Assembly: GCA_051531915.1 (NCBI GenBank)
Contig: JAOPTQ010000046.1
Coordinates: forward strand, 81,923 to 145,922
DNA: 64,000 nt
Direction: 5' to 3'
From: Colwellia sp.
GTDB lineage: Bacteria; Pseudomonadota; Gammaproteobacteria; Enterobacterales; Alteromonadaceae
Shown: positions 1-13,092 of the stretch, piece after piece
Position numbering within the stretch: the first letter of the stretch is position 1
How the letters are laid out: every line of letters begins with the position of its first letter
Program-made: the position numbers and the translations under genes
Notes under the pieces: generated by a model
What the model was told of the DNA's origin: nothing
The model's input: the letters and a program-made list of their open reading frames with translations, nothing else
The model's database searches: none

Positions 1-2189
1 TAGTGTAGGCTACTAGATAGGTTGATTATAGCTTGTACAATCGCGGCATCATCAGGATCGGTTGTAATATCACGTACAAATGACTGGTCTATTTTTAATT
101 GTTTCAGTGGCAAGCGCTTTAAACAGGAGAGTGAAGAATACCCTGTACCGAAGTCATCCATTGAAAAATCAATACCGAGTTGATTCAATAGTCTCATTTT
201 CTTAATGGTTATGTCGACATTTTCTAATACCATACTTTCAGTGAGTTCCAATTTTAAGCAATGTGGATTTATGTCCATTGAGGTGATGATATCTTGTATC
301 TGCTTAACAAAATTTTCTTGTTTAAATTGTAAGGCGCTAACATTAACGGATATTTGCCAAGTTTTTCTGTTGGGGATGCTTTCCCATATTTTAAGTTGCT
401 GACATGCTGATTCTAATACCCATTTTCCTATCGGGATGATTAAGCCACTCTCTTCTGCTAAAGGAATAAAATCTAATGGTGAAATCATTCCTCGTTTTGG
501 ATGGCTCCAACGTAATAAAACCTCGGCACCTTGAATGCCTTCGGTTTCATCTACTTGTACTTGATAATACAATTCCAATTCATTGTTATCTATTGCTTGG
601 TGTAGGTCTGATAAAATAGCCGTGTTTTTTTCTAAGGTAGCTTGCATTGTAGGATCAAAAAAGCGAATGGTATTTCTACCCGCGGCTTTCGCCTGATACA
701 TAGCTACATCAGCCTGTTTTAGTATTTCATCGTGGCTAATTAAGTTTGATTTAAATAGGCTGATGCCAATGCTGGGCGTACAATGAAAAACAACTTCATT
801 CTTGACTCCGCCATTTTTTGTGACCGACAATTGATAAGGCTTACCAAGGGAACGTTGTATTTTTTCTGCTAATTTTTCTGCAACATAACTAGCATTCACT
901 TCATCATTACCAAGGTTAGCAATGATAGTAACAAACTCATCACCTCCTAATCGAGCGACAAGATCTTCCTCTCTAAGGCTTTCTTGTATTCTTTTGGCGA
1001 CCGTAATAAGTAGTTGGTCACCCATACTGTGCCCTTGAGTATCGTTAAGGCTTTTAAAGTGATCAAGGTCGATAAAAAACAGTGCATTTAAGTGCTCGTC
1101 ACGAGAATGAGCAGTCATCATCAGTTGTAGTCTGTCTTGTAACATTCTACGATTAGGTAATCGTGTTAGCGGATCATAAAAGGCAAGTTGTTGAATCAAA
1201 TCTTCATGATTTTTTCGTTCAGTGATGTCTCTACTGACGCACATCAAGCCATAGCGAGTGCCATCTAAACCATCAAATGTTTTTTTAATGGTTTCATGTA
1301 GTACTTTACTACCGTCAGGATAAACCACCCATTCATTTTGGCTATAAATTTTACCGCTGGCAATAATTTTCTGCTCATCCAGCTTAGCGGTATTTGAAAA
1401 TTTAAAGTTCCCTGTGAGTTCTTGGTCTGTTTTTCCTTTAAGTTCTTGCTCCTTCATATCTACATATCGTTCAAACGCCTGGTTGCAGCCAAGGTAACGG
1501 CCACGTGTATCTTTAAAGGATATTAAATCAGGCAATGAACCAATTAAGCCCCGCATTAGGCTTTGTTCTCTACTTAACAGTTTTTGATTTTCAGTCAAGT
1601 CACGTTCTGCCTGACGCCGATCACTTTGTCGTTTTAGTATCAGACCGACTAACACAGTACAAATGGGAAATATTAATATTAATGGTAATATAATTGCATT
1701 AATTATTTTGAATCGAAAATTCTCAGGCATTAGTAACATACAAGCCAACACACTGATTTGAATTAACATGCCAAATGCATATAGCTTGAACCAGTCAAGA
1801 GGGAGATTTTTATATTTTAAAATGTAAGCGAATAAATAGCCCAAACAACCGGGAATAATGACGACTAAGGAACCTACAAACGCCCCAGCACCTCCTATGT
1901 AAATTCTTAAACTTACCATCATGACAGCGGCTATTAGTGTTGGCACCAAACCAAAAAACAAACCACAAAGGCTGATCAGCACCCAGCGTGTGTCAAATAC
2001 TACGCCTGGGGCCATTTCCCATGAAGTGTTCATAACGACAAGGCCGAGCATACCGACAAAGAAGCCAGATATTAATTCGCGTACCGCCTTATTCTTGATG
2101 GACTCAATATTTAATGCATCATAAATAACGCCTAAAGATATTAGAAATGCTGCATTGTAGAGTAGACTAATAAAACTACTAGTATCCAT
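1..2189 (-). CDS. Membrane sensor diguanylate cyclase/phosphodiesterase (multi-TM 5TMR-LYT-like N-terminus, PAS, GGDEF, EAL); C-terminus runs off the window
   Basis: Absent from the ORF track because no stop lies inside the window. My reverse-strand translation from ATG at 2189-2187 (MDTSSFISLLYNAAFLISLGVIYD...) stays open to nt 1. It contains RLGGDEFV (~nt 930-960), EVLLRWSHP (~nt 500-540) and DDFGTGYSSL (~nt 130-170). Confidence 0.85.
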   Translation of the reverse strand, partial: MDTSSFISLLYNAAFLISLGVIYDALNIESIKNKAVRELISGFFVGMLGLVVMNTSWEMAPGVVFDTRWVLISLCGLFFGLVPTLIAAVMMVSLRIYIGGAGAFVGSLVVIIPGCLGYLFAYILKYKNLPLDWFKLYAFGMLIQISVLACMLLMPENFRFKIINAIILPLILIFPICTVLVGLILKRQSDRRQAERDLTENQKLLSREQSLMRGLIGSLPDLISFKDTRGRYLGCNQAFERYVDMKEQELKGKTDQELTGNFKFSNTAKLDEQKIIASGKIYSQNEWVVYPDGSKVLHETIKKTFDGLDGTRYGLMCVSRDITERKNHEDLIQQLAFYDPLTRLPNRRMLQDRLQLMMTAHSRDEHLNALFFIDLDHFKSLNDTQGHSMGDQLLITVAKRIQESLREEDLVARLGGDEFVTIIANLGNDEVNASYVAEKLAEKIQRSLGKPYQLSVTKNGGVKNEVVFHCTPSIGISLFKSNLISHDEILKQADVAMYQAKAAGRNTIRFFDPTMQATLEKNTAILSDLHQAIDNNELELYYQVQVDETEGIQGAEVLLRWSHPKRGMISPLDFIPLAEESGLIIPIGKWVLESACQQLKIWESIPNRKTWQISVNVSALQFKQENFVKQIQDIITSMDINPHCLKLELTESMVLENVDITIKKMRLLNQLGIDFSMDDFGTGYSSLSCLKRLPLKQLKIDQSFVRDITTDPDDAAIVQAIINLSSSLH

Positions 2190-2563
2190 ATATGGGACTT
2201 AATTCCTTTGAAAGTTGGTGAGTTTTTTATGCGACCAAAGCGATAATAACAGTATATGATTTTTTGCATTGAGGTTATTCTACTTTAATTGGCAACATTT
2301 TAGGTTGTTTACAATCGCACATGGCAGTGTCCGTTAAGAATAGTCTGAAAGGGCTTGTCATTCAACTTTAAGCAATCACTTGCCGTTGATAATTAAGCGC
2401 TAATCTTTATTTTTCACCTATGTGGTCTGGTCAGATTTTCATTCCAACGCTAGCTAGTTGTAAAGAGGTGTTTACTAAATAACCATTGATTTTTTCTTCT
2501 TCGTCTCTTATTTTAATCAACTATTATTTGCCTCTTAATAAGGCATTATATATACATGGAGGC

Positions 2564-3037
2564 ATGATGATAAACGTTTATCTTTTTGATTGGGGTGATA
2601 CCCTAATGATCGACTTCCCTAACGAGAGTGGCAAAATGTGCGACTGGGAAGTTGTTGAAGCAGTTTCTGGGGCCAAAGAAACGTTAGAAAATTTATCCCA
2701 AAATTCTAAAATATACATTGCTACTGGTGCAGCCGATTCAACAGAGTTAGAAATTAAACTCGCTTTTGAACGAGTAGGTTTAAATCAATTTATATCAGGC
2801 TATTTTTGTAAAGCTAACTTAGGATTATCAAAAGGAACTCCTGAGTTTCTCAAGTCGATTTTAGAAAAGTTAAAAATACCTGCGGTAAATATAGCTATGG
2901 TTGGTGATAATTTCGAAAAAGATATTAAGCCTGCAATTACTGTTGGCATTCAACCGTTTTGGCTTACAAAAAACAGTACCCAATTTGTTCTGGGTAATGT
3001 TAAAGTAATTAATCAGTTAAGTGCTTTGTATAGATAA
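2564..3037 (+). CDS. Small HAD-superfamily hydrolase
   Basis: ORF track 2486..3037. The likely true start is ATG 2564 or 2567, just after GGAGG at 2558-2562. Motif I-like LFDWGDTLM at the N-terminus and MVGDNFEKD near the C-terminus. Confidence 0.7.
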   Translation: MMINVYLFDWGDTLMIDFPNESGKMCDWEVVEAVSGAKETLENLSQNSKIYIATGAADSTELEIKLAFERVGLNQFISGYFCKANLGLSKGTPEFLKSILEKLKIPAVNIAMVGDNFEKDIKPAITVGIQPFWLTKNSTQFVLGNVKVINQLSALYR

Positions 3038-3162
3038 CTAGTTATTAAAGTAGAACCTTTAACGGTTGGCGTGGTTCTTCTTAGTGTCATATTTTAGCCA
3101 ACAATTTCTTGCCTGCTAATGGAGCGTTAATGCACATTAGTTGCGGCAAATGAGGGGATGAA

Positions 3163-3705
3163 ATGGCAAGACCTAAAACTAAGGACGAGTTATTTGAGGC
3201 TGCGGGTACTAATTATGAAGTGTTGTGGCAAATAATTAACTCAATGCCAGAAAATGCATTGAATACACAATTCGACTTTTCAAGTGATCTGAAAAAAAAG
3301 GAAGCACACTGGAGGCGAGATAAAGACCTTAGAGACGTGTTGATTCACTTGTACGAATGGCACCAATTACTTTTAAGGTGGATTCTCTCTAATCAGGCAG
3401 GAAATAAATCTGCGTTTATTCCCAAGCCATATAACTTTAAAACATACGGTGAAATGAACATAGCGTTTTGGAAAAAACACCAAAACACACAACTTGAAGA
3501 TGCGAAAATACAATTTAAAGCTAGCCACAAAGCAGTATTGGCATTAGTGAAAACCTTCTCTGATGAACAGCTTTTTATCAAAAAGTATTTTGACTGGACT
3601 GGCACTACTTCGCTTGGTAGTTATTGTGTATCTGCCATGCCTAGCCATTATGATTGGGCTATCAAAAAATTACGCGCACATGTAAAGAAGTTTCTAAATA
3701 ATTAA
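3163..3705 (+). CDS. ClbS/DfsB-family (DUF1706-like) four-helix-bundle protein
   Basis: 180-aa ORF. Length and pattern (KDELFEAAGTNYEVL..., HLYEWHQLLLRW, C-terminal SHYDWAIKKLR) match my memory of the ClbS/DfsB family. Followed by a hairpin plus T-run. Confidence 0.55.
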   Translation: MARPKTKDELFEAAGTNYEVLWQIINSMPENALNTQFDFSSDLKKKEAHWRRDKDLRDVLIHLYEWHQLLLRWILSNQAGNKSAFIPKPYNFKTYGEMNIAFWKKHQNTQLEDAKIQFKASHKAVLALVKTFSDEQLFIKKYFDWTGTTSLGSYCVSAMPSHYDWAIKKLRAHVKKFLNN

Positions 3706-3707
3706 AT

Positions 3708-3837
3708 ATGCCTATGTAGATTGCTCAGGAACTAATGTAGGTCGGGCTTCAGCCCGTTTTTCTTGATGCCCTAAAGGACAACCTACAAGTAAATTCTATG
3801 ACTTTACAACCTTACCTGAGCTAACTGCATAGGCATG
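3708..3837. repeat. MITE-like palindromic element, variant copy (shares only the termini with the other copies); carries a terminator hairpin
   Basis: The termini ATGCCTATGTAGATTGCTCAGG and CCTGAGCTAACTGCATAGGCATG are inverted repeats. The same termini occur at 10870, 11077, 25031, 59729 and 34488. Confidence 0.75.
3743..3762 (+). terminator. Rho-independent terminator downstream of the ClbS-like gene (inside the MITE copy)
   Basis: CGGGC-ttca-GCCCG followed by TTTTTCTT. Confidence 0.6.
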
Positions 3838-3964
3838 TAATTAAATGAGCATGTAAGACGTTACTCAAAGACAAAGTAGATGGTTTTTCTTATTATTCGC
3901 TTATTTTAACTATCATTGTCCTTTCAATAAAGCGCAATGATTAATTACAACACGGAAGTCAATT

Positions 3965-4456
3965 ATGTACAGAATTATAAGTTTATATGTTTTGATATTT
4001 TCAGAAATTGTTTATGCTGAACAAGTTCCTGTTGAATTAAAAATTTCACCCTCTTTACTTTTAAAAATGGTTTCTAATGGTCAAACAACCTCTGTTTTAC
4101 CTGAATTTGAGGTTTTCAATTCTAAGGGAAACAGTGTTTTTCATCGAAGGTCATTGAGTAAAAAATTCAAAATCATGCTTGTAAACGCAATGCTAAACCC
4201 CATAGAGAATGGGAAAAAACTCCAAGACTCTCTTAAGATTATTTCACAAAAAAATAGTGAAATATCTTATCAAGTAGATCCAAGTAAATATGATTATATT
4301 TTTATCGAGTATTGGGCTTCATGGTGTGCGCCATGCTTTCATCAAATGGCTATAATTCAAGAGGTTTTAACAGAAAATGCTAGTATTAATATTCTTTGGT
4401 TAAAAGTGGAGAAAGACCCTACCAAAATAGAAAGTATTACTAATGATTATTTGTAG
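3965..4456 (+). CDS. Secreted thioredoxin-fold (TlpA/redoxin-like) protein with CxxC
   Basis: N-terminal signal-like MYRIISLYVLIFSEIVYA, and WASWCAPC active-site motif. Confidence 0.7.
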   Translation: MYRIISLYVLIFSEIVYAEQVPVELKISPSLLLKMVSNGQTTSVLPEFEVFNSKGNSVFHRRSLSKKFKIMLVNAMLNPIENGKKLQDSLKIISQKNSEISYQVDPSKYDYIFIEYWASWCAPCFHQMAIIQEVLTENASINILWLKVEKDPTKIESITNDYL

Positions 4457-4469
4457 TGATGAGTAAAAA

Positions 4470-4688
4470 ATGAGAGAAGAGCTAAGAGTTAAAATTATTG
4501 AAGTTTGTGATAAAAAAATATCGAGTAAAGGGGCTAATGTTGGCTTGTCATTTTATGCCTTTTTCGCCAATAAAAATGACAAGCCTGAGTTACTTATGGA
4601 AGTTGCCACTTGGTGGATTCAAACTCACCAATTAGATCATTTTGTGAAAGCTTATATAATTAAAGAAATGATTCAAAATGGATTATAA
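4470..4688 (+). CDS. Hypothetical protein (72 aa)
   Basis: ORF only. It starts 13 nt after the redoxin gene on the same strand. I recognise no motif. Confidence 0.4.
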   Translation: MREELRVKIIEVCDKKISSKGANVGLSFYAFFANKNDKPELLMEVATWWIQTHQLDHFVKAYIIKEMIQNGL

Positions 4689-4829
4689 CGCTTAATTTAT
4701 CTTTTTACACAGATGAAATTTCACCCATTGAAAAAGTTAATTTTGTATCGTATGGTTATAAAGTGTAAAAATTAAATAAGGAAAAATTCACGATTTAACG
4801 AGGATTTTTCCTGTTACAAGAACTGTTAA

Positions 4830-5261
4830 ATGGAGGTAGTAGTGAATTCTAATAGATATTCTATCAAGCTAGAAAGTCCTTCGATTGAGGAGTTTTTGAA
4901 CTTAAGAAATAAAATTGGTTGGGGAGAATTAGGTTTTAATCTCGCTAAAACTAGCTTAAATAATTCTTTATTTCACGTCATCATCCGTGATAAATATCAA
5001 CTTATTGGTATGGGTCGTATTGTTGGCGATGGTGCTATGTACTTTTATATTCAAGATGTAATCGTCGATCCAAGTTATCAAAATTCTGGTGTTGGCTCCG
5101 CTTTAATGGAGCAAATAGAACGTTATTTGTCAGTTACAGCCAAAAAAGGCTCTACTATTGGATTACTCGCTGCAAAAGGAAAAGAAGCATTTTATACTCG
5201 CTATAGCTATATCATGCGACCAAGTAACTCTTTAGGTAATGGTATGTGCCGGTTTGTGTAA
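4830..5261 (+). CDS. GNAT-family N-acetyltransferase
   Basis: RIVGDGAMYFYIQDVIVDPSYQNSGVGSALME is a typical GNAT motif A (Q/RxxGxG/A). The start could instead be GTG 4842, after GGAGG at 4832-4836. Confidence 0.8.
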   Translation: MEVVVNSNRYSIKLESPSIEEFLNLRNKIGWGELGFNLAKTSLNNSLFHVIIRDKYQLIGMGRIVGDGAMYFYIQDVIVDPSYQNSGVGSALMEQIERYLSVTAKKGSTIGLLAAKGKEAFYTRYSYIMRPSNSLGNGMCRFV

Positions 5262-5414
5262 AGTTAGTCATACAAGTCATTTAAAAGGACAAAAAAATAC
5301 AAGCCATTTAACTGGGACAAATAACAGTTAGTTTTTGCTCCTTTGAGGCTTATTTTAACCAACTATCATTTGCCTCTTATTGGGGCGTTGGTACACAGCA
5401 ATCGTTGAGGTTAT

Positions 5415-5873
5415 ATGAAAAATTCATGTTTGGTTTTATTCGCATTATTATCTTTGCCATCATTGGCGAATGAAATATCTTTAGAAGATAGGATGAAGGT
5501 TCTTGATAGAGAGCTTTTTACATCTTTTAACCGTTGTCAAAACGCTAAAGAACTGGATAAACATGCTAATTATTTTTCTCTTGATGTAGAGTTTTACCAT
5601 GATAATGGCGGTGTAACTTGGGATCGTGACACAATGATTTCAAATACTAAAAAAAATGCATGCGGTAATTTCACTCGAAAACTTGTTAATGGGTCTTTTA
5701 AAGCCTATCCAATTAAAGGGTTTGGTGCAATCACAGAAGGAGTCCATATTTTTTGCCAAAATAAAACTAAAAAATGTGAAGGCAAAGCAGATTTTGTGAT
5801 GGTTTGGCGTAATGTAAATGACAAATGGCAAATTACCCGAGTACTAAGTTACGGACATCGAGAAAATAAATAA
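5415..5873 (+). CDS. Secreted NTF2-fold (DUF4440/SnoaL-like) protein
   Basis: Signal peptide MKNSCLVLFALLSLPSLA. Size and C-terminal FVMVWRNVNDKWQITRVLSYGH are typical of DUF4440-like proteins. Confidence 0.55.
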   Translation: MKNSCLVLFALLSLPSLANEISLEDRMKVLDRELFTSFNRCQNAKELDKHANYFSLDVEFYHDNGGVTWDRDTMISNTKKNACGNFTRKLVNGSFKAYPIKGFGAITEGVHIFCQNKTKKCEGKADFVMVWRNVNDKWQITRVLSYGHRENK

Positions 5874-5997
5874 AGTGCGTACAATTGGCTGTTAAATAAG
5901 GACAAAATAAGTTAACTTCCAGCTCGTGTCTTGCTAGTTTTACGCCACTCAGCAAGGTATTGGTGTTACTTTAGTATTATATTAATTAGGAATAAAA

Positions 5998-6189
5998 ATG
6001 AATAATAAAATTATTGGAATAGTACTTATCATTGTCGGTGTTGTTTTAGCTATGTGGGGTTACAATATTTATGATGCCGCTAGCTCTCAAGTTAGCCGAG
6101 CCTTAAGTGGTGATACACCTATTGAAGCATGGGCAGGTTTGGTTGGCGGTGTTGTTTGTGTGTTAATTGGTATCACTAGAGTAAAGTAA
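5998..6189 (+). CDS. Small two-TM membrane protein (DUF3185-like)
   Basis: 63 aa with two hydrophobic helices (IIGIVLIIVGVVLAMWGY and AGLVGGVVCVLIGI). AGGAAT lies upstream of the ATG. Confidence 0.6.
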   Translation: MNNKIIGIVLIIVGVVLAMWGYNIYDAASSQVSRALSGDTPIEAWAGLVGGVVCVLIGITRVK

Positions 6190-6237
6190 ATAATTTTGTG
6201 AACTAATCTAAATTTAGAATAAAAAAACAAAAAAAAG

Positions 6238-6284
6238 TCGATGACAATTCAAAATCATTATTGTTTGTCATCGAGCCGTTTTTA
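6238..6284. terminator. Bidirectional terminator between convergent genes
   Basis: TCGATGACAA...TTGTCATCGA is a 10-bp perfect stem, flanked by an A-run upstream and GCCGTTTTT downstream. Confidence 0.6.
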
Positions 6285-6343
6285 ACGCTTTTTATTCCGC
6301 CTTTTACATAGATTACACAAATAATCTTTGAAGCTTATCAGCT

Positions 6344-7957
6344 TTAGATAGTCACCTTATTGCTAATCGCTTGTGTTGATGTAGAAGGAGATAGCGCCCA
6401 AATACTATCGCGTTCACCCTGTAAAGCACGTCGCTTAGTTTTCAAAGCACCATAATAAAAAACACCTGAAAAAATTAACGCTATTAATTCAACAAGATAA
6501 GCCGAGTAATAATTGACTGACCATAATGCTAGACTTGGCATTACACTAGTTAATATTGTTGTTATTGGAATGCCTAAGCAAACAACAAACAAGGCTTGCT
6601 GTAGATGAATGGCACTTCTTGCCGCGCCTCTAACAAAACTATAAAGCAGTGCAGCAAAAAATACCGTGTAATAACAAGTTAGATAGCTTTGATTAATTTG
6701 GGCTCCCATAATATAGAGCCATTTACTGACAAGTATTGTGCATACCACGGCCAATATTGAACCTAAACAGATACCGATAGTTAGCGAGGCCATAAATCGG
6801 CTTGATTTACTTTGGGTCGCTTGTTTTTTTCTGCGCTTTTCAAGCCATATCAAATTACCACTATAAAATAAAAAGGCACCTAATAAGCCCATAACAAAGT
6901 ATAGCCATCGACCAAACTCTCCGCCCATACCGCCAAAATGCAAGGAGAAAAAGCTTGCAACATAAGGAACATAATATTCGTTATTATTCATTGCTAAACT
7001 ACTAAAGCTCACCTTAAATGAATAAGGATCCATATAAATAAAATCACCGGTATTACTGCGCATCATTTCTTGGCTATTCATTAATCTTATGCCTACGCTA
7101 GGCATTGGAGACGATAAACGGCTAAATTCTAGGGCTATAACTTCATAGCCATCTGTTAGCTCATTAACTTTTTCAAGGTAAGTTGAAATAACCGGTAATT
7201 TATCGACAGAAAATTCAACTTGAGATTTTTGAGGAGGTTCAAATAATGGTTTATCTCCGTACGCTAAGCTTAATCCTCCATAGAATACATCATGAAAAGC
7301 AAAGACGACCACTGTCCATGCAATAATCAAATGAAAGGGTAAGCTAACAATACCGATAAGGTTATGGCTGTCTAACCAAAAGCGATTAGCGCCTTTATTT
7401 TTTCTTAAAGCAAAAAAACTTTTTACTAATGTAGGTAACAAAAAGATGATGCCTGACACTAACGCTAAAAAATATAATACAGCAGCAATACCTAAAACAA
7501 TTACACCTATGTCTTCATGGCCTACTTTTCCCGCGATACCTGCCGTACGGTGTAACATGTCAATGAGTTCACCTAACTCATTGCTGCTTTGGGTTTGAGT
7601 AATTAGCTCACCTTGCTCGGTTAGGCTAGCGTGTTTTACCACTTTATTTAACTGAAGCCCTCGACCACCTCCTTGCTCAACCCAAGTGATTGGCGATGAA
7701 TGCTCATCAAAATTAACGGTAAATCCTTGTTGAGCTTTTTCGTTGTTAGTTAATGTCTTAACTATTAATTCATCGAATTTCTCACTGGGTATTTGCGCTA
7801 AATGGTGGCTTGACGGTGTAGCCCATAGGCTTATGTCATCTTCAAACATAGAAAGCGAACCGGCATAAAAACCAATAAATAACACGAGGCCAGCAACTAT
7901 TCCTGTCCAAGTATGAATTGATTGATATGTGCGAAGAATATCGGCACGAATTCTCAT
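6344..7957 (-). CDS. PepSY-associated TM-helix protein (PiuB/FoxB-like iron-regulated membrane protein)
   Basis: 537 aa. The N-terminal RIRADILRTYQSIHTWTGIVAGLVLF signature, multiple TM helices and a large periplasmic loop are typical of the PepSY_TM family. It sits next to a TonB-dependent receptor. Confidence 0.75.
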   Translation of the reverse strand: MRIRADILRTYQSIHTWTGIVAGLVLFIGFYAGSLSMFEDDISLWATPSSHHLAQIPSEKFDELIVKTLTNNEKAQQGFTVNFDEHSSPITWVEQGGGRGLQLNKVVKHASLTEQGELITQTQSSNELGELIDMLHRTAGIAGKVGHEDIGVIVLGIAAVLYFLALVSGIIFLLPTLVKSFFALRKNKGANRFWLDSHNLIGIVSLPFHLIIAWTVVVFAFHDVFYGGLSLAYGDKPLFEPPQKSQVEFSVDKLPVISTYLEKVNELTDGYEVIALEFSRLSSPMPSVGIRLMNSQEMMRSNTGDFIYMDPYSFKVSFSSLAMNNNEYYVPYVASFFSLHFGGMGGEFGRWLYFVMGLLGAFLFYSGNLIWLEKRRKKQATQSKSSRFMASLTIGICLGSILAVVCTILVSKWLYIMGAQINQSYLTCYYTVFFAALLYSFVRGAARSAIHLQQALFVVCLGIPITTILTSVMPSLALWSVNYYSAYLVELIALIFSGVFYYGALKTKRRALQGERDSIWALSPSTSTQAISNKVTI

Positions 7958-8253
7958 GCTAACCCCCTTAATAAAAAGAATAAGCCATAACTGATGATAT
8001 TTGCAGCGGCTAAATAAATAATGGCTTTAGTACCGGTTTTAAATAAATAACTGAAAGTTAAAATAAGCAGCCAAATAGGGGATATCATCCACATGTTAAA
8101 TTGAACTTTTGCGGGTGCATCGATGCCGCCTGGCCCGTACCATGCGAAAATAGCAACTATGGCGTAAGCTAATGTTAACCCTAAAATTGTTCCTGCAAAA
8201 GTTTTAAGCCACCAATGCGGTTGAATTTTTTGCTCTGCTGTTAGCCTTGCCAC
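7954..8253 (-). CDS. Small membrane protein (DUF3649-like) of the PepSY cluster
   Basis: 99 aa with 3 TM helices. Its stop overlaps the downstream start by 4 nt, indicating translational coupling. Confidence 0.55.
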   Translation of the reverse strand: MARLTAEQKIQPHWWLKTFAGTILGLTLAYAIVAIFAWYGPGGIDAPAKVQFNMWMISPIWLLILTFSYLFKTGTKAIIYLAAANIISYGLFFLLRGLA

Positions 8254-8525
8254 TTTGAATCTCCTTTATGTTTATTGAAGCCAATCAATAGACTCAGTAA
8301 TGGAATACACATTAATACAACCGAAAGCGTGAAAAGCCAAAGAAATATTGAAGCAGATACCGCATGCGTTTGCCACCAGGCAATAAAAGCAAAAGCCATC
8401 ATCAGATAACCAACTATTCGCCAATATTTGGTAAGCGGTTTACTGAGGAATCGTTGATGTTTATTTGACAGGTAAAGGAATACACCACCTAAGAATGAAA
8501 GAATTATCGCAACTATTATCCACAT
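8241..8525 (-). CDS. Small membrane protein (DUF3325-like) of the PepSY cluster
   Basis: 94 aa with 3 TM helices. It overlaps the next gene by 13 nt. Confidence 0.55.
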   Translation of the reverse strand: MWIIVAIILSFLGGVFLYLSNKHQRFLSKPLTKYWRIVGYLMMAFAFIAWWQTHAVSASIFLWLFTLSVVLMCIPLLSLLIGFNKHKGDSKWQG

Positions 8526-8583
8526 TTTGGTATTTACCCTTAAATAGAGACCAGAGATTGAAAAACCAAAATTTTAATTCAAA

Positions 8584-8604
8584 TAAAAATGATTAGCAAT
8601 TAAG
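8584..8604. promoter_or_regulatory. Candidate Fur box in the divergent promoter region (a second AT-hexamer run lies at 8714-8740)
   Basis: AAAAATGATTAGCAATTAA matches about 11 of 19 positions of GATAATGATAATCATTATC. AATAATAATAATAATATT at 8717-8740 resembles NATWAT hexamer repeats. Confidence 0.3.
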
Positions 8605-8793
8605 TGTTTATATTTTTTAATTATAGCTTGTTATATATCACTTTTGTTATAAGTAATAGCTAGTTACTAATGGAAATGGTTTGCATTTAGATTGCTGTTG
8701 TTGTATTTTTCCCGTCAATAAAAATAATAATAATAATATTAAAAAGACTTAGTTAAAAAACACTTAACATTATGTATATAAAGTAGGAATTTC

Positions 8794-10845
8794 ATGAAAC
8801 ATAAACTATTTAAATTAAACGCAATTGTTGCGGCGGTTTTTTGTACAAGCGCACTATCTGTAGCGTTTGCAGATGATGCTCAGCAGTTACAATCAATTGA
8901 ACGCATTACCGTAATGGGTGAAAAAACTGAGCGTTCACTCAAAGATACTAGCTCTTCAGTTTCTGTTATTACTGAAGAAGTCTTAAAAACGATGCAAAAT
9001 TTAAGCATGAGCGAAGCTATTGCTGATATTCCTAACGTTGTGGTTTTATCAGGTGCTGCACCCGATATTCGTGGTGTGTCAGGCAATGGTGGCGCATCAG
9101 GTTTTAATGCCTTTAGCGGCGGCGCTAAAACTCGTGTTTCTACTTTAATTGACGGTGTAGTAGAGCCCTTTGTTGCTTTTGTAACCGGTGATTCAGGTAT
9201 TTGGGATATTGAACAAATAGAAGTGTTTCGTGGCCCACAATCTACCAGTAATGGTCGCAATAGTATTGGTGGTGCAGTTTATATTAAAACGAAAGATCCT
9301 TCATTTGATTGGGAAGGTGCTGCTCGTTTAGGTTATAGAAATCAAGACAGCTATATTGATACCTCTGCTGTTATTTCAGGACCAATAATAGCTAATGAAC
9401 TCGCTTTTAGAGCATCATTTCAACGTTTAGATGGCGATACTATAGATAACCCCGTTATTTTTGATACTAATTTACCTGAGCATGATCTTAACGCAGTAGA
9501 AACCAATCGTTTAAAAGCAAAGTTGTTATGGAAACCTGCAGCTATTGAAGATTTTTCTGCACTATTGACTTACTCAACGAATGATGAAAAAGGTAATGCG
9601 GGGCGTAAATATTATGTTGGTGATGATCCTTATTCTTATCAACCTATCAACCCTACCTATATGGATACAGAATCAGAAACTGTTAGCGTAAAACTTGACT
9701 ATGTTATCAATGACTCTATTTCCATTGACTTTCTTGCGTCAGTAATGGATTTCCAATGGGCAATGGATACTTATGCTGAAACTGAAGCCGCAGAGCAATA
9801 TGTTAAAATGGATGAAGACAACATTATGCTTGATGCCAAAATTAATTTTGGCAACAATAATCCAACTTTGAATGGATTTGTTGGTTTGGCCTATTTTGAA
9901 CGAGAGCAAGATTTCTTTAGTTTAGGTGCTTACCCATACAATGGCGATGACACCAGTGATTCAACCGCTATTTATGGCGAAGTGAGTTACGTATTTGCCG
10001 ATGATTGGACCGTTATTGCCGGCGGAAGAATTGAAAAGGAAACACAAGAACGTGATTTTTCAATGCCGGGCAGTGGTATCAATAATGCTAAGTTGAATGA
10101 AAGTAATACCATTAACTTACCTAAGTTAGTTTTACAGTATAAAATTTCAGATGAAACCACTTTATCACTGAGTGGTCGTCGTGGTTATAATTCTGCCGGT
10201 GGCGCACTAAACTTTTCTACCCTAGAGTACTATTACTATGGTGAAGAAACCGTAAATACTTATGAATTTACAGTGCGTAGTAGTTTATCTGATGATATTA
10301 ACTTAAGTGCAAATGTCTTTTTCAACAATTTTGATGGCTACCAAGCATTAAGTTCATCACGTTCAATTGTTAACATGGATGACGCACAAACTTACGGTGT
10401 AGAGTTTGAAATGTCAGCCATGCTTACTGATAATTTTCAAGTGAATGCCGGTTTAGGTTTATTAAAAACTGAAATAAAAGATGCTGGCGAAAATTATGCT
10501 GATGCCACAGGTAATGAGTTAAACTCAGCACCTGAAATTACCGCTAATGTTGGCGGTAAGTATTGGCTAACTGAAGAATTAAATTTCGGCATTTCAGTAA
10601 ATTATGTTGATGAATACTTTGGTGACTTTGCTAATACCGAAGAACGCGTTGCTGGCGGTTATATGCTCACACGACTTAATGTAAACTATGAAACAGAAAA
10701 CTGGCTAGTTGCTGTATTTGTTAATAATGCACTTGACGAGCAAGAGCTTGTTTCTAACGAACCAGTTGGTAGATCATACCCTAGAGGCTATTCGTCAATT
10801 GTTGACCCAAGAAATATTGGTGCGTCAGTTACTTATTCATTTTAG
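8794..10845 (+). CDS. TonB-dependent outer-membrane receptor (siderophore/iron type)
   Basis: Signal peptide, plug region (IERITVMGEK, FRGPQSTSNGRNSIGGAVYIKTK) and C-terminal beta-barrel ending in ...SVTYSF. Confidence 0.9.
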   Translation: MKHKLFKLNAIVAAVFCTSALSVAFADDAQQLQSIERITVMGEKTERSLKDTSSSVSVITEEVLKTMQNLSMSEAIADIPNVVVLSGAAPDIRGVSGNGGASGFNAFSGGAKTRVSTLIDGVVEPFVAFVTGDSGIWDIEQIEVFRGPQSTSNGRNSIGGAVYIKTKDPSFDWEGAARLGYRNQDSYIDTSAVISGPIIANELAFRASFQRLDGDTIDNPVIFDTNLPEHDLNAVETNRLKAKLLWKPAAIEDFSALLTYSTNDEKGNAGRKYYVGDDPYSYQPINPTYMDTESETVSVKLDYVINDSISIDFLASVMDFQWAMDTYAETEAAEQYVKMDEDNIMLDAKINFGNNNPTLNGFVGLAYFEREQDFFSLGAYPYNGDDTSDSTAIYGEVSYVFADDWTVIAGGRIEKETQERDFSMPGSGINNAKLNESNTINLPKLVLQYKISDETTLSLSGRRGYNSAGGALNFSTLEYYYYGEETVNTYEFTVRSSLSDDINLSANVFFNNFDGYQALSSSRSIVNMDDAQTYGVEFEMSAMLTDNFQVNAGLGLLKTEIKDAGENYADATGNELNSAPEITANVGGKYWLTEELNFGISVNYVDEYFGDFANTEERVAGGYMLTRLNVNYETENWLVAVFVNNALDEQELVSNEPVGRSYPRGYSSIVDPRNIGASVTYSF

Positions 10846-10869
10846 TTTTGAAGGTAAACAATAATTAAA

Positions 10870-11002
10870 GTGCCTATGTAGATAACTCAGGAGTTTATTG
10901 TAAACGTCATCTTCGAAGTCTCTGATCGATGTATTGTTTTTTAGGCACCGGATCCCCGATTAAAAAACCACGGGGATGACGAACCTGGGCCAAGTGCGTA
11001 GT
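10870..11002 (+). repeat. MITE-like palindromic element, copy 1
   Basis: GTGCCTATGTAGATAACTCAGG...GTCATCTTCGAAG...CCCCGATTAAAAAACCACGGGGATGACGAACCTGGG...GTGCGTAG. Alignable with the copies at 11077, 25031 and 59729. Confidence 0.8.
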
Positions 11003-11076
11003 CATTAAAATTAAATAAAGTCTCCTTAATTACCAACTAAGGAGGCTTTTTAATTACTAACACTATATATTATTTC

Positions 11077-11258
11077 ATGCCTATGTAGATAACTCAGGCA
11101 TCCGTTGTAATCATCATCTTCGAGGTGCTTTTGCCTATAGGACGTAGGTACTTTGCTTTGGAACTACAAAACTGAATCGACGATCTAGGTGTTTTTATAC
11201 TTAGATTCCCGTTTAAGACACCACGGGAATGACGAATCTGAGTGAAGTGCATAGGCAC
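11077..11258 (+). repeat. MITE-like palindromic element, copy 2 (longest, ~45-nt internal insertion)
   Basis: ATGCCTATGTAGATAACTCAGG...ATCTTCGAGG...CTAGGTGTTTTTATACTTAGATTCCCGTTTAAGACACCACGGGAATGACGAATCTGAGTGAAGTGCATAGGCAC. Confidence 0.85.
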
Positions 11259-11331
11259 GGTATTTATTACTTTAGAAAATCAGTTAAGTAACAGCATGAA
11301 ATCATTGTGATGTTTAGGGTTCTTTTGTTGT

Positions 11332-13092
11332 TTAATAAACCCTATTGGTGATCCAAACTGTTTGATAAGGCGTAAGCGCTATGCTTTGTGTTATGTTGGT
11401 GATTTCAGTCGCTGAAATAAGTTCAAGCCAGGTTTCTGTGACAATGAGGTTAAGCTCACTTAACAACAATGTTATGGGTTTATCAGTGACATTACTAATA
11501 CAAAAAATGCTTTGTTTTCTATCTAAACTTTGTCGCCAAAAGCCAAAAAGCTGTAAACCTAAATGTAAGGTAAATTGTGTGGCGTTTGGATGAAAAGCCG
11601 GTTGGTTAATTCTTATATCAAGTAGTGATGTTAGTTTTTCTAGCACTTTTTTGTGATGCAATGTTTGATCAGCTAATGCTTCATTTAACAAATGTTCTTG
11701 CCAACGATGACGATTAATAGAGCGATTTTGATGAGTATCCGCTAATTTATCATAGTCATTTTTCGTGCCTAATAAACTATGAATATATAAGCCGGGAACA
11801 CCTTCGAGGGCGAACATTATGGTATGAGCACAAATAAAACGTTCAAAATTCCAATGGTCTTTCCCTTTTACGGTGCCTTGCATTGCGTCATAAAGAGAAA
11901 TGTTTAATTCATAGGCTTTTTGTTGACCGCTCTCTGTCGCTCGCCAAGATATTCTTCCACCAAAATTTTCAATGGCGGCAACTAATTCATTCAATTCTTG
12001 ATCGTTTAGCAATCCCTCTGCAGGTCTTAAACCAATACCATCGTGTGAGGCGATAAAGTTAAAATACATCGTGCCATTTTGAGCTGGTGGCATACTCATT
12101 AACCAGCGTTTTAGATATAAACAGTTACCGGTTAATAGCGTGTTTATCAATAACGGCGGTAATGAAAAATTATAAATTCCATGAGCTTCGTTGGCATTAC
12201 CAAAGTAAGTAAGATTTTGCGTATTGGGAATATTCGTTTCAGTAATAATAATTGCATCGGGTGTTTTTATTTCAATGAGCGTTCTTAATAATCTAACAAT
12301 TTCATGTGTTTGCGGTAAATTTATGCATTTGGTACCAACCACTTTCCATAAAAAGGCGATAGCATCAAAGCGAAAAATTGTGATGCCGCTATCAAGGTAT
12401 TGTTTTACGATGGCAACAAAGGCTTTTAATACCGCAGGATTTCTAAAATCAAAATCGACTTGGTCATGGCTAAAGGTACACCAAACAAATTTTTTCCCGT
12501 TATTTGTTTCAACTTCTTTGAGTAACGGTGATGTTCTTGGTCTGATCACCTCAGATAAGTTATTTTCTGGTAAAGCAGTATAGAAAAAATCACATCCTAC
12601 GCCTTCGCCTTTTATAAAATTAGCAAACCATTGACTACGGCTTGAGCAGTGATTGATAACAATGTCTGACATAACGTTATAGTCTTTTGCTATTGCCGTT
12701 ATATCAGTCCATGAACCCAGTGATTCATTCACCGATGAGTAGTCAATAACTGAAAAGCCATCATCTGAGCTATAAGGAAAAAAGGGTAAAATATGGACAC
12801 TATTTACCTGCTGACTAATGGTATTATCAAGAAAACGTTTGAGTGTTTGTAAAGGCTGTTCATCCTCTTTAATAATACTGTCACCGTAGGTAATTAAACA
12901 GATATCACGCTCTGACCAGTTGTTTTTATGAGGAATGGGGAGTTCGTGCTTATCCGTAATTTCCATCAATTCAAGCAGGTCTTGAGCAAGGCTTGAAGTC
13001 TCTTGTGCTAAGGTAATATATTGATAAATAAAATCAAGTTGCTGTGTTATTTTTTGTTTAAGGGGCGAGTTATTATTTGCCATTGACATCAT
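11332..13092 (-). CDS. GH13_18 sucrose-phosphorylase-family sugar phosphorylase (candidate glucosylglycerate phosphorylase)
   Basis: LITYGDSI, VHILPFFPYSSDDGFSVIDY, IVINHCS, IFRFDAIAFLWK, ITETN and YNFSLPPLL blocks match the sucrose phosphorylase family. Last gene of a 4-gene operon. Confidence 0.8.
   Translation of the reverse strand: MMSMANNNSPLKQKITQQLDFIYQYITLAQETSSLAQDLLELMEITDKHELPIPHKNNWSERDICLITYGDSIIKEDEQPLQTLKRFLDNTISQQVNSVHILPFFPYSSDDGFSVIDYSSVNESLGSWTDITAIAKDYNVMSDIVINHCSSRSQWFANFIKGEGVGCDFFYTALPENNLSEVIRPRTSPLLKEVETNNGKKFVWCTFSHDQVDFDFRNPAVLKAFVAIVKQYLDSGITIFRFDAIAFLWKVVGTKCINLPQTHEIVRLLRTLIEIKTPDAIIITETNIPNTQNLTYFGNANEAHGIYNFSLPPLLINTLLTGNCLYLKRWLMSMPPAQNGTMYFNFIASHDGIGLRPAEGLLNDQELNELVAAIENFGGRISWRATESGQQKAYELNISLYDAMQGTVKGKDHWNFERFICAHTIMFALEGVPGLYIHSLLGTKNDYDKLADTHQNRSINRHRWQEHLLNEALADQTLHHKKVLEKLTSLLDIRINQPAFHPNATQFTLHLGLQLFGFWRQSLDRKQSIFCISNVTDKPITLLLSELNLIVTETWLELISATEITNITQSIALTPYQTVWITNRVY

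Follow-up and report, generated by a model that had tools for sequence, protein, structure and literature searches.

The region from 2448 to 6285 of a 64 kb stretch of Colwellia sp. DNA very probably represents an integrase-less integron remnant composed of two joined parts, in which the attC recombination sites are decayed and the second part is headed by an orphan element resembling an integron attI site with its cassette promoter (Pc). The stretch, which will be referred to as the window, comprises positions 81923-145922 of the 164 kb contig C46 in a genome of 4.7 Mb (208 contigs, 36.5% G+C). An earlier note based on the letters of the window had described seven small genes on the + strand separated by a conserved motif of approximately 48 nt and had proposed either a degenerate attC cluster lacking an integrase (CALIN) or another intergenic repeat such as a promoter or leader module. 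The open reading frame (ORF) listing is in agreement with this gene order, showing seven + strand ORFs between 2567 and 6189 with inter-ORF gaps of 13-259 nt.

The attC family and the integrons of the genome

The four motif copies were found where the earlier note had placed them and align over approximately 80 nt, far beyond chance. The motif of ~48 nt is thus real and conserved, but it constitutes just the 3′ half of elements of ~100 nt (2448-2552, 3032-3133, 3848-3941 and 5294-5394). A profile built from these copies yielded 78 copies genome-wide at E<1e-3, distributed over 25 contigs; the window copies themselves obtained E values of 4e-12 to 3e-19 in this search. Most of the 78 copies stand in tandem with a spacing of 350-900 bp on small contigs, as is typical when an array rich in repeats causes an assembly to break. 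With its flanks added, the full element of ~100 nt has the consensus aTAACAAGc-CATTnAAaCgGGAC-AAAAAACAGTTGGC-loop-GCCAACaATTTTTT-GCCcGTTAATGGgG-CGTTAg.

In integrons, the integrase IntI recombines the folded bottom strand of attC with double-stranded attI at G|TT. The structure of the family was evaluated on 59 non-window copies using RNAalifold and a hand-completed 29-pair structure including the TAAC/GTTA R box. In this hairpin 91.8% of the cells pair compared to 80.4 ± 0.5 after shuffling and 21-49% with slid partners, and none of 500 shuffles reached the observed score. Compensatory changes on both sides were detected in 17 of the 29 pairs (e.g., CATT/AATG, TGTT/AACA, TGCT/AGCA and CGTT/AACG). 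At the family level, the imperfect inverted repeats folding into a hairpin that characterize attC sites are clearly present. So are extrahelical bases on the R″-L″ arm: the unpaired columns 17, 21 and 25 are confined to this 5′ arm of the family alignment, the bulges are visible in the fold of an array copy, and a role in strand selectivity is predicted for them.

A covariance model of the attC family (R1), built from the 59 non-window copies only, was validated on 80 loci around IntI homologs of Colwellia, Thalassotalea, Psychromonas, Litorilituus and Vibrio. R1 detected 240 sites at E<=0.001 in these integron loci, all located on the strand opposite to intI except for three weak reverse-strand echoes of strong hits. 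Among them are the sites of 127-130 nt in Vibrio integron cassette arrays, which supports the resemblance to Vibrio cholerae repeats (VCRs) that the earlier note had pointed out. Array copies outside the window scored 60-113 bits, those of the array on contig C101 103-106 bits. On C101 and in the 80 loci the sites are positioned at the 3′ ends of single-ORF cassettes in co-oriented arrays starting from intI/attI, and in the window each site follows a same-strand ORF. The motif family is an attC family. A subset of its members ends with CGTTGG(TA) and not with CGTTAG/T (C86:7375, C145:1008, C67:3229, C168:3948, C60:38395, C30:41678 and window 5294-5394); R″ is degenerate in nearly all of them, and they tend to occur in scattered clusters rather than in the main arrays.

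A generic intergenic element unrelated to integrons, such as a repetitive extragenic palindromic (REP) sequence, a miniature inverted-repeat transposable element (MITE) or a promoter or leader module, would account for a repeat that is found genome-wide and ends 8-27 nt ahead of start codons. It would also fit an Rfam scan of window 1-12000 at E<=10, which gave no integron-site match and only weak unrelated families far under their gathering scores. This explanation can practically be dismissed: tandem co-oriented arrays start at intI/attI, R1 retrieves the array sites beside intI in the 80 loci including Vibrio, the stem covaries strongly, and promoter-like sites are not enriched in the cluster region (23 versus 16.7 ± 5 expected). 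The promoter or leader module proposed for the 48-nt motif is accordingly rejected. The earlier note had considered a motif occurring genome-wide upstream of unrelated genes as evidence for such an element; the motif formally does so, but its copies are those of cassette arrays at 350-900 bp and not generic REP or promoter elements. One of the weak Rfam matches, to the COG2908 RNA (window 10380-10416, within a TonB-dependent receptor gene; 22.3 bits versus a gathering score of 58.7, E 0.036), is most likely due to chance.

Integrase genes were searched in six frames over the whole genome with TIGR02249 (curated cut-off 265 bits). Two intI genes scored above the cut-off, C101:17234-18181 (465 bits) and C38:82620-83453 (358 bits), both of them free of internal stops and followed by motif copies on the opposite strand. 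The genome-wide search for motif and intI that had been suggested as a check thus resulted in 78 copies and two arrays starting beside intI. The IntI proteins of this genome are 56-63% identical to Vibrio IntI, and their best identities amount to 75%. On C101, intI is followed by ~200 nt ending with TAATAAGCTGTTAGCAGG and then by three single-ORF units, each closing with an attC copy, up to the end of the contig; the 3′ end of this attI is GCTGTTAG. The second intI is split over two contigs with its N-terminus on C68:19-141, presumably due to an assembly break, and the attI of this second integron (C68, ~545-572, CATAATAAGCTGTTATATG) is of the canonical type and was missed by the attI model R2 described below. 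Complete integrons with intI, attI and attC are consequently present at C101 and C38/C68, and the window contains none. Contig C46 showed no intI-like match in the six-frame TIGR02249 search at E<=0.001, though a very short remnant could escape. At least eight further scattered attC clusters exist in this genome.

Erosion of the attC sites in the window

R1 was run on all 64 kb with filters off, and the cluster was found to contain the following sites:

2448-2552, + strand: attC relic A, upstream of the HAD gene; 48.3 bits, E 2.5e-9; 20/29 pairs; fold -6.5 kcal/mol, z -0.4; R box TAGC/ATTA
3032-3133, + strand: attC B; 57.1 bits, E 1.6e-11; 22/29 pairs; fold -10.8 kcal/mol; R box TAAC/GTTA
3848-3941, + strand: attC relic C, heavily decayed; 21.3 bits, E 0.013; 13/29 pairs; fold -8.9 kcal/mol; R box TAAG/GCAA
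5294-5394, + strand: attC D; 80.2 bits, E 2.8e-17; 23/29 pairs; fold -11.1 kcal/mol, z -1.6; R box ATAC/GTTG (weakened)
5879-5966, + strand: attC relic E, after the DUF4440 gene; 14.2 bits, E 0.8, with the 5′ arm alone recognisable; fold -6.5 kcal/mol, z +0.66 (no better than shuffles)

Beyond these sites, no match better than E 0.5 was obtained over the 64 kb. The AAC/GTT triplets of the R box are intact in one site (B), weakened in one (D) and gone in two (A and C). Relic A has lost the conserved G of GTT; B, the sole window site with an intact R box, has an R″ that overlaps the HAD stop codon. Site D is best preserved in sequence, yet its minimum-energy fold differs from the canonical hairpin. 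Sites in arrays, in contrast, show 26-29 of the 29 pairs, bottom-strand folds of -15 to -26 kcal/mol and TAAC/GTTA in nearly all cases (one array copy folds at -24.1 kcal/mol with z -5.1), and few members of the attC family fold as weakly as the window copies.

The earlier note failed to fold a canonical attC by hand because the window sites are eroded and fold weakly. The bottom-strand folding that it recommended revealed extrahelical bases in the family and array folds, whereas the window folds are weak (-6.5 to -11.1 kcal/mol). Its candidate R″ boxes, CTTTAAC at 3057-3063 and ATTTAAC at 5306-5312, turned out to belong to the inner stem, the true R″ being located ~25 nt further upstream (ATAAC at 3034-3038 in site B and a degenerate ATAC near 5298 in site D). 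Its observation of a left-hand motif common to the junctions after the GNAT and NTF2-like genes was correct: this motif is the 5′ (L″) arm of attC and all that remains after DUF4440. Taking scores and predicted folds together, most of the window attC sites would no longer be recombinogenic.

According to Cury et al. (PMC4889954), a CALIN comprises two or more attC sites lying less than 4 kb from each other on one strand, with neither intI nor a recognisable pseudogene of it within 10 kb. In the window, four sites with E<=0.013 lie within 3 kb, all on the + strand, and C46 carries no intI match. The proposal of a degenerate attC cluster lacking an integrase is thus supported by the same family beside intI/attI on other contigs and in the 80 loci, by the stem covariation, by the erosion and by the lack of any intI-like match on the contig.

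The attI/Pc-like element and its relatives

The 141-nt gap between the DUF6500 and GNAT ORFs has three similar sites on contig C60 and a weakly similar one on C26. Each of the C60 copies has an ordinary gene on one side and, on the other, the first small ORF of a cluster with attC. A profile of four orphan copies yielded 24 matches at E<1 in the 80 integron loci (best E 1e-7, 5e-6 and 2.5e-5). Of these, 21 matches from 18 species lie on the cassette strand at 41-158 nt upstream from the intI start, where the attI/Pc region is positioned. The alignment revealed a shared architecture consisting of TTGAnn, 17 nt and (G)TAnnnT, promoter-like and directed toward the cassettes, followed by a palindrome around GTTTAAAC and an invariant TGTTA. 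The similarity ends after TGTTA, where the cassette begins; in the window, GNAT and attC D come next. The feature is as follows:

4717-4830, + strand: orphan attI/Pc-like element with profile homology to attI regions; 48.6 bits with R2 (the window copy is among the R2 training set)

Within the element, the promoter scan identified a promoter-like -35 box TTGAAA (4728-4733) and -10 box TATGGT (4751-4756) with a 17-nt spacer; an imperfect palindrome (4778-4812) and two CTGTTA boxes are also present. A crossover in the window copy would be expected between G4825 and T4826. The DUF6500 ORF ends 28 nt upstream of the model match (4717) and ~11 nt upstream of the start of the four-copy similarity (~4700). 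Homology to genuine attI regions with a terminal G|TT and a cassette thereafter is evident; a position between intI and the first cassette is not found, as no intI was detected on the contig. Due to the missing adjacent intI the element is called orphan and attI-like, and not attI. The earlier statement that the window harbours neither intI nor attI therefore stands for intI, whereas for attI the element at 4717-4830 has to be set against it. Judged from the sequence comparison, the DUF6500-GNAT gap is homologous to the attI/Pc region located ~130 nt from intI in related integrons, and is not an attC. Two short attC-like hairpins in the gap (4678-4766 and 4762-4826) were considered and discarded, with z values of 0.04 and -1.7 and attC scores of 10-12 bits. 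A MITE reading of the element was likewise rejected; no clear terminal repeats or target duplications were seen, and the homology in genome G037 reaches a LexA-box-like motif and an intI 5′ remnant. Colwelliaceae attI regions in general contain an imperfect palindrome of ~38 nt centred on GTTTAAAC (alignment columns 76-114), with 72.9% paired versus 44-60% when slid and 12 double-change pairs; it could be a binding site for IntI or a regulator, or a structure.

A sequence-only model (R2) derived from 25 attI-like regions was run on 151 genomes of the family and matched in 73 of them, with 19 matches in G037, 12 in G121 and 8 in the genome studied here. A match lies ~130 nt from intI on C101 of this genome and in G037, G143, G116, G055, G033, G096 and G125, validating the model; all other matches are orphans. 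Twelve genomes checked for intI contain 0-2 genes each; G007, which lacks intI, nevertheless has orphans. Of 17 orphans retrieved from G037 and G143, 13 are followed by one or more attC sites within 5.5 kb, and the 43 attC matches in the retrieved loci all share the strand of the attI-like element. In locus L192, the orphan head is also preceded by an attC array, a layout as in the window. The G037 loci L191-L201 carry CTGT-N8-ACAG (LexA-box-like) ~75 nt upstream in orphan heads as well as beside real intI, and in orphan L198 ~16 codons from the 5′ end of intI are retained, the start codon ATG having become ATT. Based on this motif and the intI remnant, we infer that the orphan heads descend from integron platforms. 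No account of such orphan attI families came up in the searchable literature library when it was queried for orphan or additional attI sites.

Further orphan heads of the genome under study are located at C60:2483-2610(-), C60:17324-17439(+), C60:19544-19662(+), C26:44692-44803(+), C157:1184-1301(-) and C82:1411-1527(-). Small ORFs and an attC site follow the three C60 copies and the C157 copy, and no integron-integrase gene was detected on C60, C26, C157 and C82. At C60:16900-19700, the 3′ part of an L-rhamnose-mutarotase-like gene is duplicated together with the attI-like element ~2.2 kb apart. The duplicates bracket three small ORFs and a toxin-antitoxin-like pair, with an in-frame fusion of the second mutarotase fragment to the ParE-like ORF.

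Alternatively, the cluster might still be a live satellite platform, at which IntI encoded elsewhere inserts and excises cassettes in trans at the orphan attI-like site and at attC B and D. We consider this possible but doubtful. Two intI genes without internal stops are available in the genome (the second being split over two contigs), site B keeps TAAC/GTTA, and site D retains 23/29 pairs and 80 bits. Furthermore, the orphan heads form a conserved cross-genus lineage with an invariant TTG...GTA...TGTTA, high-scoring same-strand attC sites follow 13 of the 17 heads, and, as argued by Cury et al. (PMC4889954), integrases located elsewhere may mobilise the cassettes of CALINs. On the other hand, the window sites are among the weakest-folding of the family, two of them are without GTT, and the attI-like copy of the window is the most degenerate one in the genome.

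For the family as a whole, we tentatively propose a distributed integron, in which one or two IntI genes of a Colwelliaceae genome would serve many integrase-less platforms, each composed of an attI-like site of ~120 nt with its own cassette-directed promoter heading a short array at a separate chromosomal place. That IntI still uses the heads in trans is in our view conceivable but somewhat doubtful; under this proposal window 4717-6285 may be one ageing platform. Many CALINs of the family would then be secondary capture-and-expression sites originating from duplicated integron heads, rather than debris or insertions at secondary chromosomal (attG) sites. Many integrase-less arrays in one family begin with a recognisable attI/promoter copy, and these heads far outnumber the intI genes. 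If one integrase feeds many platforms with promoters of their own, more cassettes could be expressed at once than the single-Pc model permits.

Genes, origin of the cluster and known systems

The genes and further features of the cluster and its borders are the following:

3-2189, - strand: GGDEF-EAL gene, divergent from the cluster
2567-3037, + strand: HAD-family hydrolase, 156 aa, cassette ORF (Pfam PF00702, PF13419)
3163-3705, + strand: DUF1706 (ClbS/DfsB-like), 180 aa, cassette ORF (Pfam PF08020, 7e-54)
3706-3840, no strand assigned: MITE-like repeat of 133 nt, bounded by 22-nt terminal inverted repeats and enclosing a terminator-like hairpin (3743-3756)
3965-4456, + strand: thioredoxin-like ORF, 163 aa (WCAPC; PF00085 at 6.7e-5, just under the curated cut-off)
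4470-4688, + strand: DUF6500 ORF, 72 aa (Pfam PF20110, 4e-28), with no attC after it
4842-5261, + strand: GNAT acetyltransferase, first cassette ORF past the attI-like site (PF13508, PF13673, PF00583)
5415-5873, + strand: DUF4440/NTF2-like, 152 aa, cassette ORF with a signal-peptide-like hydrophobic N-terminus (Pfam PF14534)
5998-6189, + strand: DUF3185 small membrane protein, 63 aa (Pfam PF11381, 1.7e-23)
6228-6285, no strand assigned: strong hairpin (inverted repeat) in the gap where the DUF3185 and PepSY genes converge; -13.7 kcal/mol when folded as DNA, z -3.6
6344-7957, - strand: PepSY gene, convergent with the cluster

Pfam supported the gene types assigned by the earlier note, namely HAD, DUF1706 (its ClbS/DfsB-like protein), GNAT, DUF4440 (its NTF2-like protein) and DUF3185, and placed its unknown of 72 aa in DUF6500. 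For the CxxC redoxin, the WCAPC motif is present but the Pfam thioredoxin match is weak; the translation of this ORF begins with a hydrophobic stretch resembling a signal peptide. GNAT likely starts at GTG 4842, which is preceded by GGAGG (4832-4836), the longest ORF running from ATG 4830. The MITE-like repeat is inserted inside a cassette, with the DUF1706 ORF on one side and attC relic C on the other, and the genome search yielded another seven copies, nearly complete and 89-95% identical, which are found on other contigs and both strands. The hairpin at 6228-6285 is probably a bidirectional intrinsic terminator closing the cluster, as judged from its predicted fold. As a short attC it was rejected, scoring 13.8 bits with R1 and lacking TAAC.

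Downstream, the cluster abuts the 3′ end of a block (6344-10845) in which the PepSY-domain protein is accompanied by two ORFs for small membrane proteins and by a TonB-dependent receptor in divergent orientation. This block (TonB receptor, orf94, orf99 and PepSY) is conserved in five related species (PepSY 54-72% identical), in which none of the seven genes and no attC were found beside it. Only one of nine searched relatives, G011, has a full-length GGDEF-EAL ortholog; in that genome, separate contigs carry the GGDEF-EAL flank and the PepSY flank, and no attC is found by GGDEF-EAL. Since G011 alone has both flank orthologs, and on separate contigs, the synteny test for a clean insertion could not demonstrate an empty site. 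HAD and GNAT homologs are both patchy: HAD occurs in 21 of 151 family genomes and GNAT in 46 of 151 but in none of the three other same-genus genomes sampled, the best matches of either gene being found in other genera. The locus is accessory. In G131, a 75% identical HAD ortholog directly follows an attC in a cluster without nearby intI; overall, HAD is flanked by attC in one of 14 loci and GNAT in none of 14. DUF6500 alone among the cassette genes has a homolog within the 80 integron loci. This homolog, in Psychromonas marina NBRC 103166 (L077 3006-3221), is 83% identical and located 2.8 kb from intI on the cassette side, where the R1 sites are weak (best 26 bits).

The cluster might also be a piece of the main sedentary chromosomal integron displaced by inversion or translocation. 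Its attC family is identical to that of the intI-linked arrays, it is located at a synteny breakpoint as indicated by the separate contigs of both flanks in G011, and rearrangement is among the CALIN routes given by Cury et al. (PMC4889954). The window sites, however, are far more eroded than the array sites, so that any split from the main integron would be old. The attI-like element belongs to subfamily CCTGTTAAAAnnCTGTTA, which is distinct from the canonical attI type CTAATAAGCTGTTA, and at least eight further scattered attC clusters plus six further orphan attI-like copies are many for simple fragmentation. We therefore judge this rearrangement to be unlikely. Quite improbable, in our opinion, is the insertion of free cassettes one by one by IntI into an ordinary chromosomal GTT site (attG), a route documented experimentally for IntI1 (Loot et al., bioRxiv 10.1101/2022.09.11.507474). 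It is in line with the finding that relatives lack the cluster at the syntenic place and with the ORF listing, in which no transposase ORF was noticed adjoining the cluster (a search for insertion sequences was not run). Yet attG is described as structurally unlike attI, whereas the head of the second sub-array matches genuine attI/Pc over ~115 nt, and the G037 heads with the LexA-box-like motif, one of them with ~16 intI codons, point to descent from platforms.

The two-part remnant, as we propose it, would have the following history. Part 1 (2448-4688) would be an old cassette array with HAD, DUF1706 and the thioredoxin-like plus DUF6500 unit, its attC family being that of the sedentary chromosomal integrons of the genome; much stem pairing has been lost from its sites, and the conserved GTT of the R′ box is gone in two of three. 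Part 2 (4717-6285) would be an orphan integron head, i.e., a copy of an attI region with a cassette-directed promoter and without adjacent intI, followed by the cassettes GNAT, DUF4440 and DUF3185, one well-preserved and one half attC, and the terminator hairpin at the end. The cassettes would formerly have been delivered by IntI encoded elsewhere (C101, C38/C68), and the attI copy probably arrived when an integron platform was duplicated or rearranged and intI was lost. GNAT, DUF4440 and DUF3185 may now be transcribed from the Pc-like promoter (4728-4756), which is predicted to be active. The seven small accessory genes would thus have been acquired as cassettes and by now be largely fixed in place.

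Several observations weigh against this history. Most family homologs of HAD and GNAT are without this attC type at their flanks, and the thioredoxin-like plus DUF6500 unit, a putative cassette, is without its own attC. The four-copy profile (nhmmer) did not retrieve the two canonical attI regions of this genome. Their link to the element is by alignment and, for C101, also via R2, for which C101 is a training sequence; the attI assignment would hence draw on the integrons of other species plus alignment. In addition, the window copy is the most divergent and lowest-scoring of the four in the genome, with TTTCAC versus TTTAAC in the others and a damaged inner GTTTAAAC. As attC function is structure-dependent, divergent sites can still recombine, and low scores or weak folds are no proof of inactivity; site B retains TAAC/GTTA, and site D retains 23/29 pairs and GTT. 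Finally, as the assembly comprises 208 contigs, the locus can only be said to lie at least 80 kb away from the integrons.

Among known systems, the Vibrio superintegron resembles the locus in its attC sites, which are long and homogeneous in both (~127 nt in Vibrio compared to ~100 nt), the TAAC...GTTA R box, the IntI identity of 56-63% and the cross-detection by R1; the window differs in having no intI, shorter and decayed sites and a Colwelliaceae host. Integrase-deleted remnants of class 1 integrons keep attI1, Pc and cassettes and are recent deletion products on mobile elements. As in these remnants, a head of attI and promoter persists in the window with cassettes and without a working integrase beside it, but the Colwelliaceae heads constitute a multi-copy, cross-genus chromosomal family with up to 19 R2 matches in a genome that has one intI. 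Cassettes inserted at attG, or single attC sites lacking integrases (SALINs) (Loot et al., bioRxiv 10.1101/2022.09.11.507474), are comparable in that the cassettes are located outside an integron in a genome encoding IntI, whereas the landing site in the window is attI-like in sequence and no simple attG. CALINs are common and their origin is debated between integrase loss, rearrangement and secondary-site insertion (PMC4889954; bioRxiv 10.1101/2022.09.11.507474). IntegronFinder annotates attI for classes 1-3 only (PMC4889954), and the attI-like model provides a practical marker to sort CALINs by origin. The locus corresponds to a CALIN in the spacing and strand of its attC sites, the lack of intI, the complete integrons elsewhere in the genome and the small non-resistance accessory cassettes. 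It differs from a CALIN in the visible erosion of its attC sites and in one junction that is attI/Pc-like, a feature outside the CALIN definition for chromosomal integrons.

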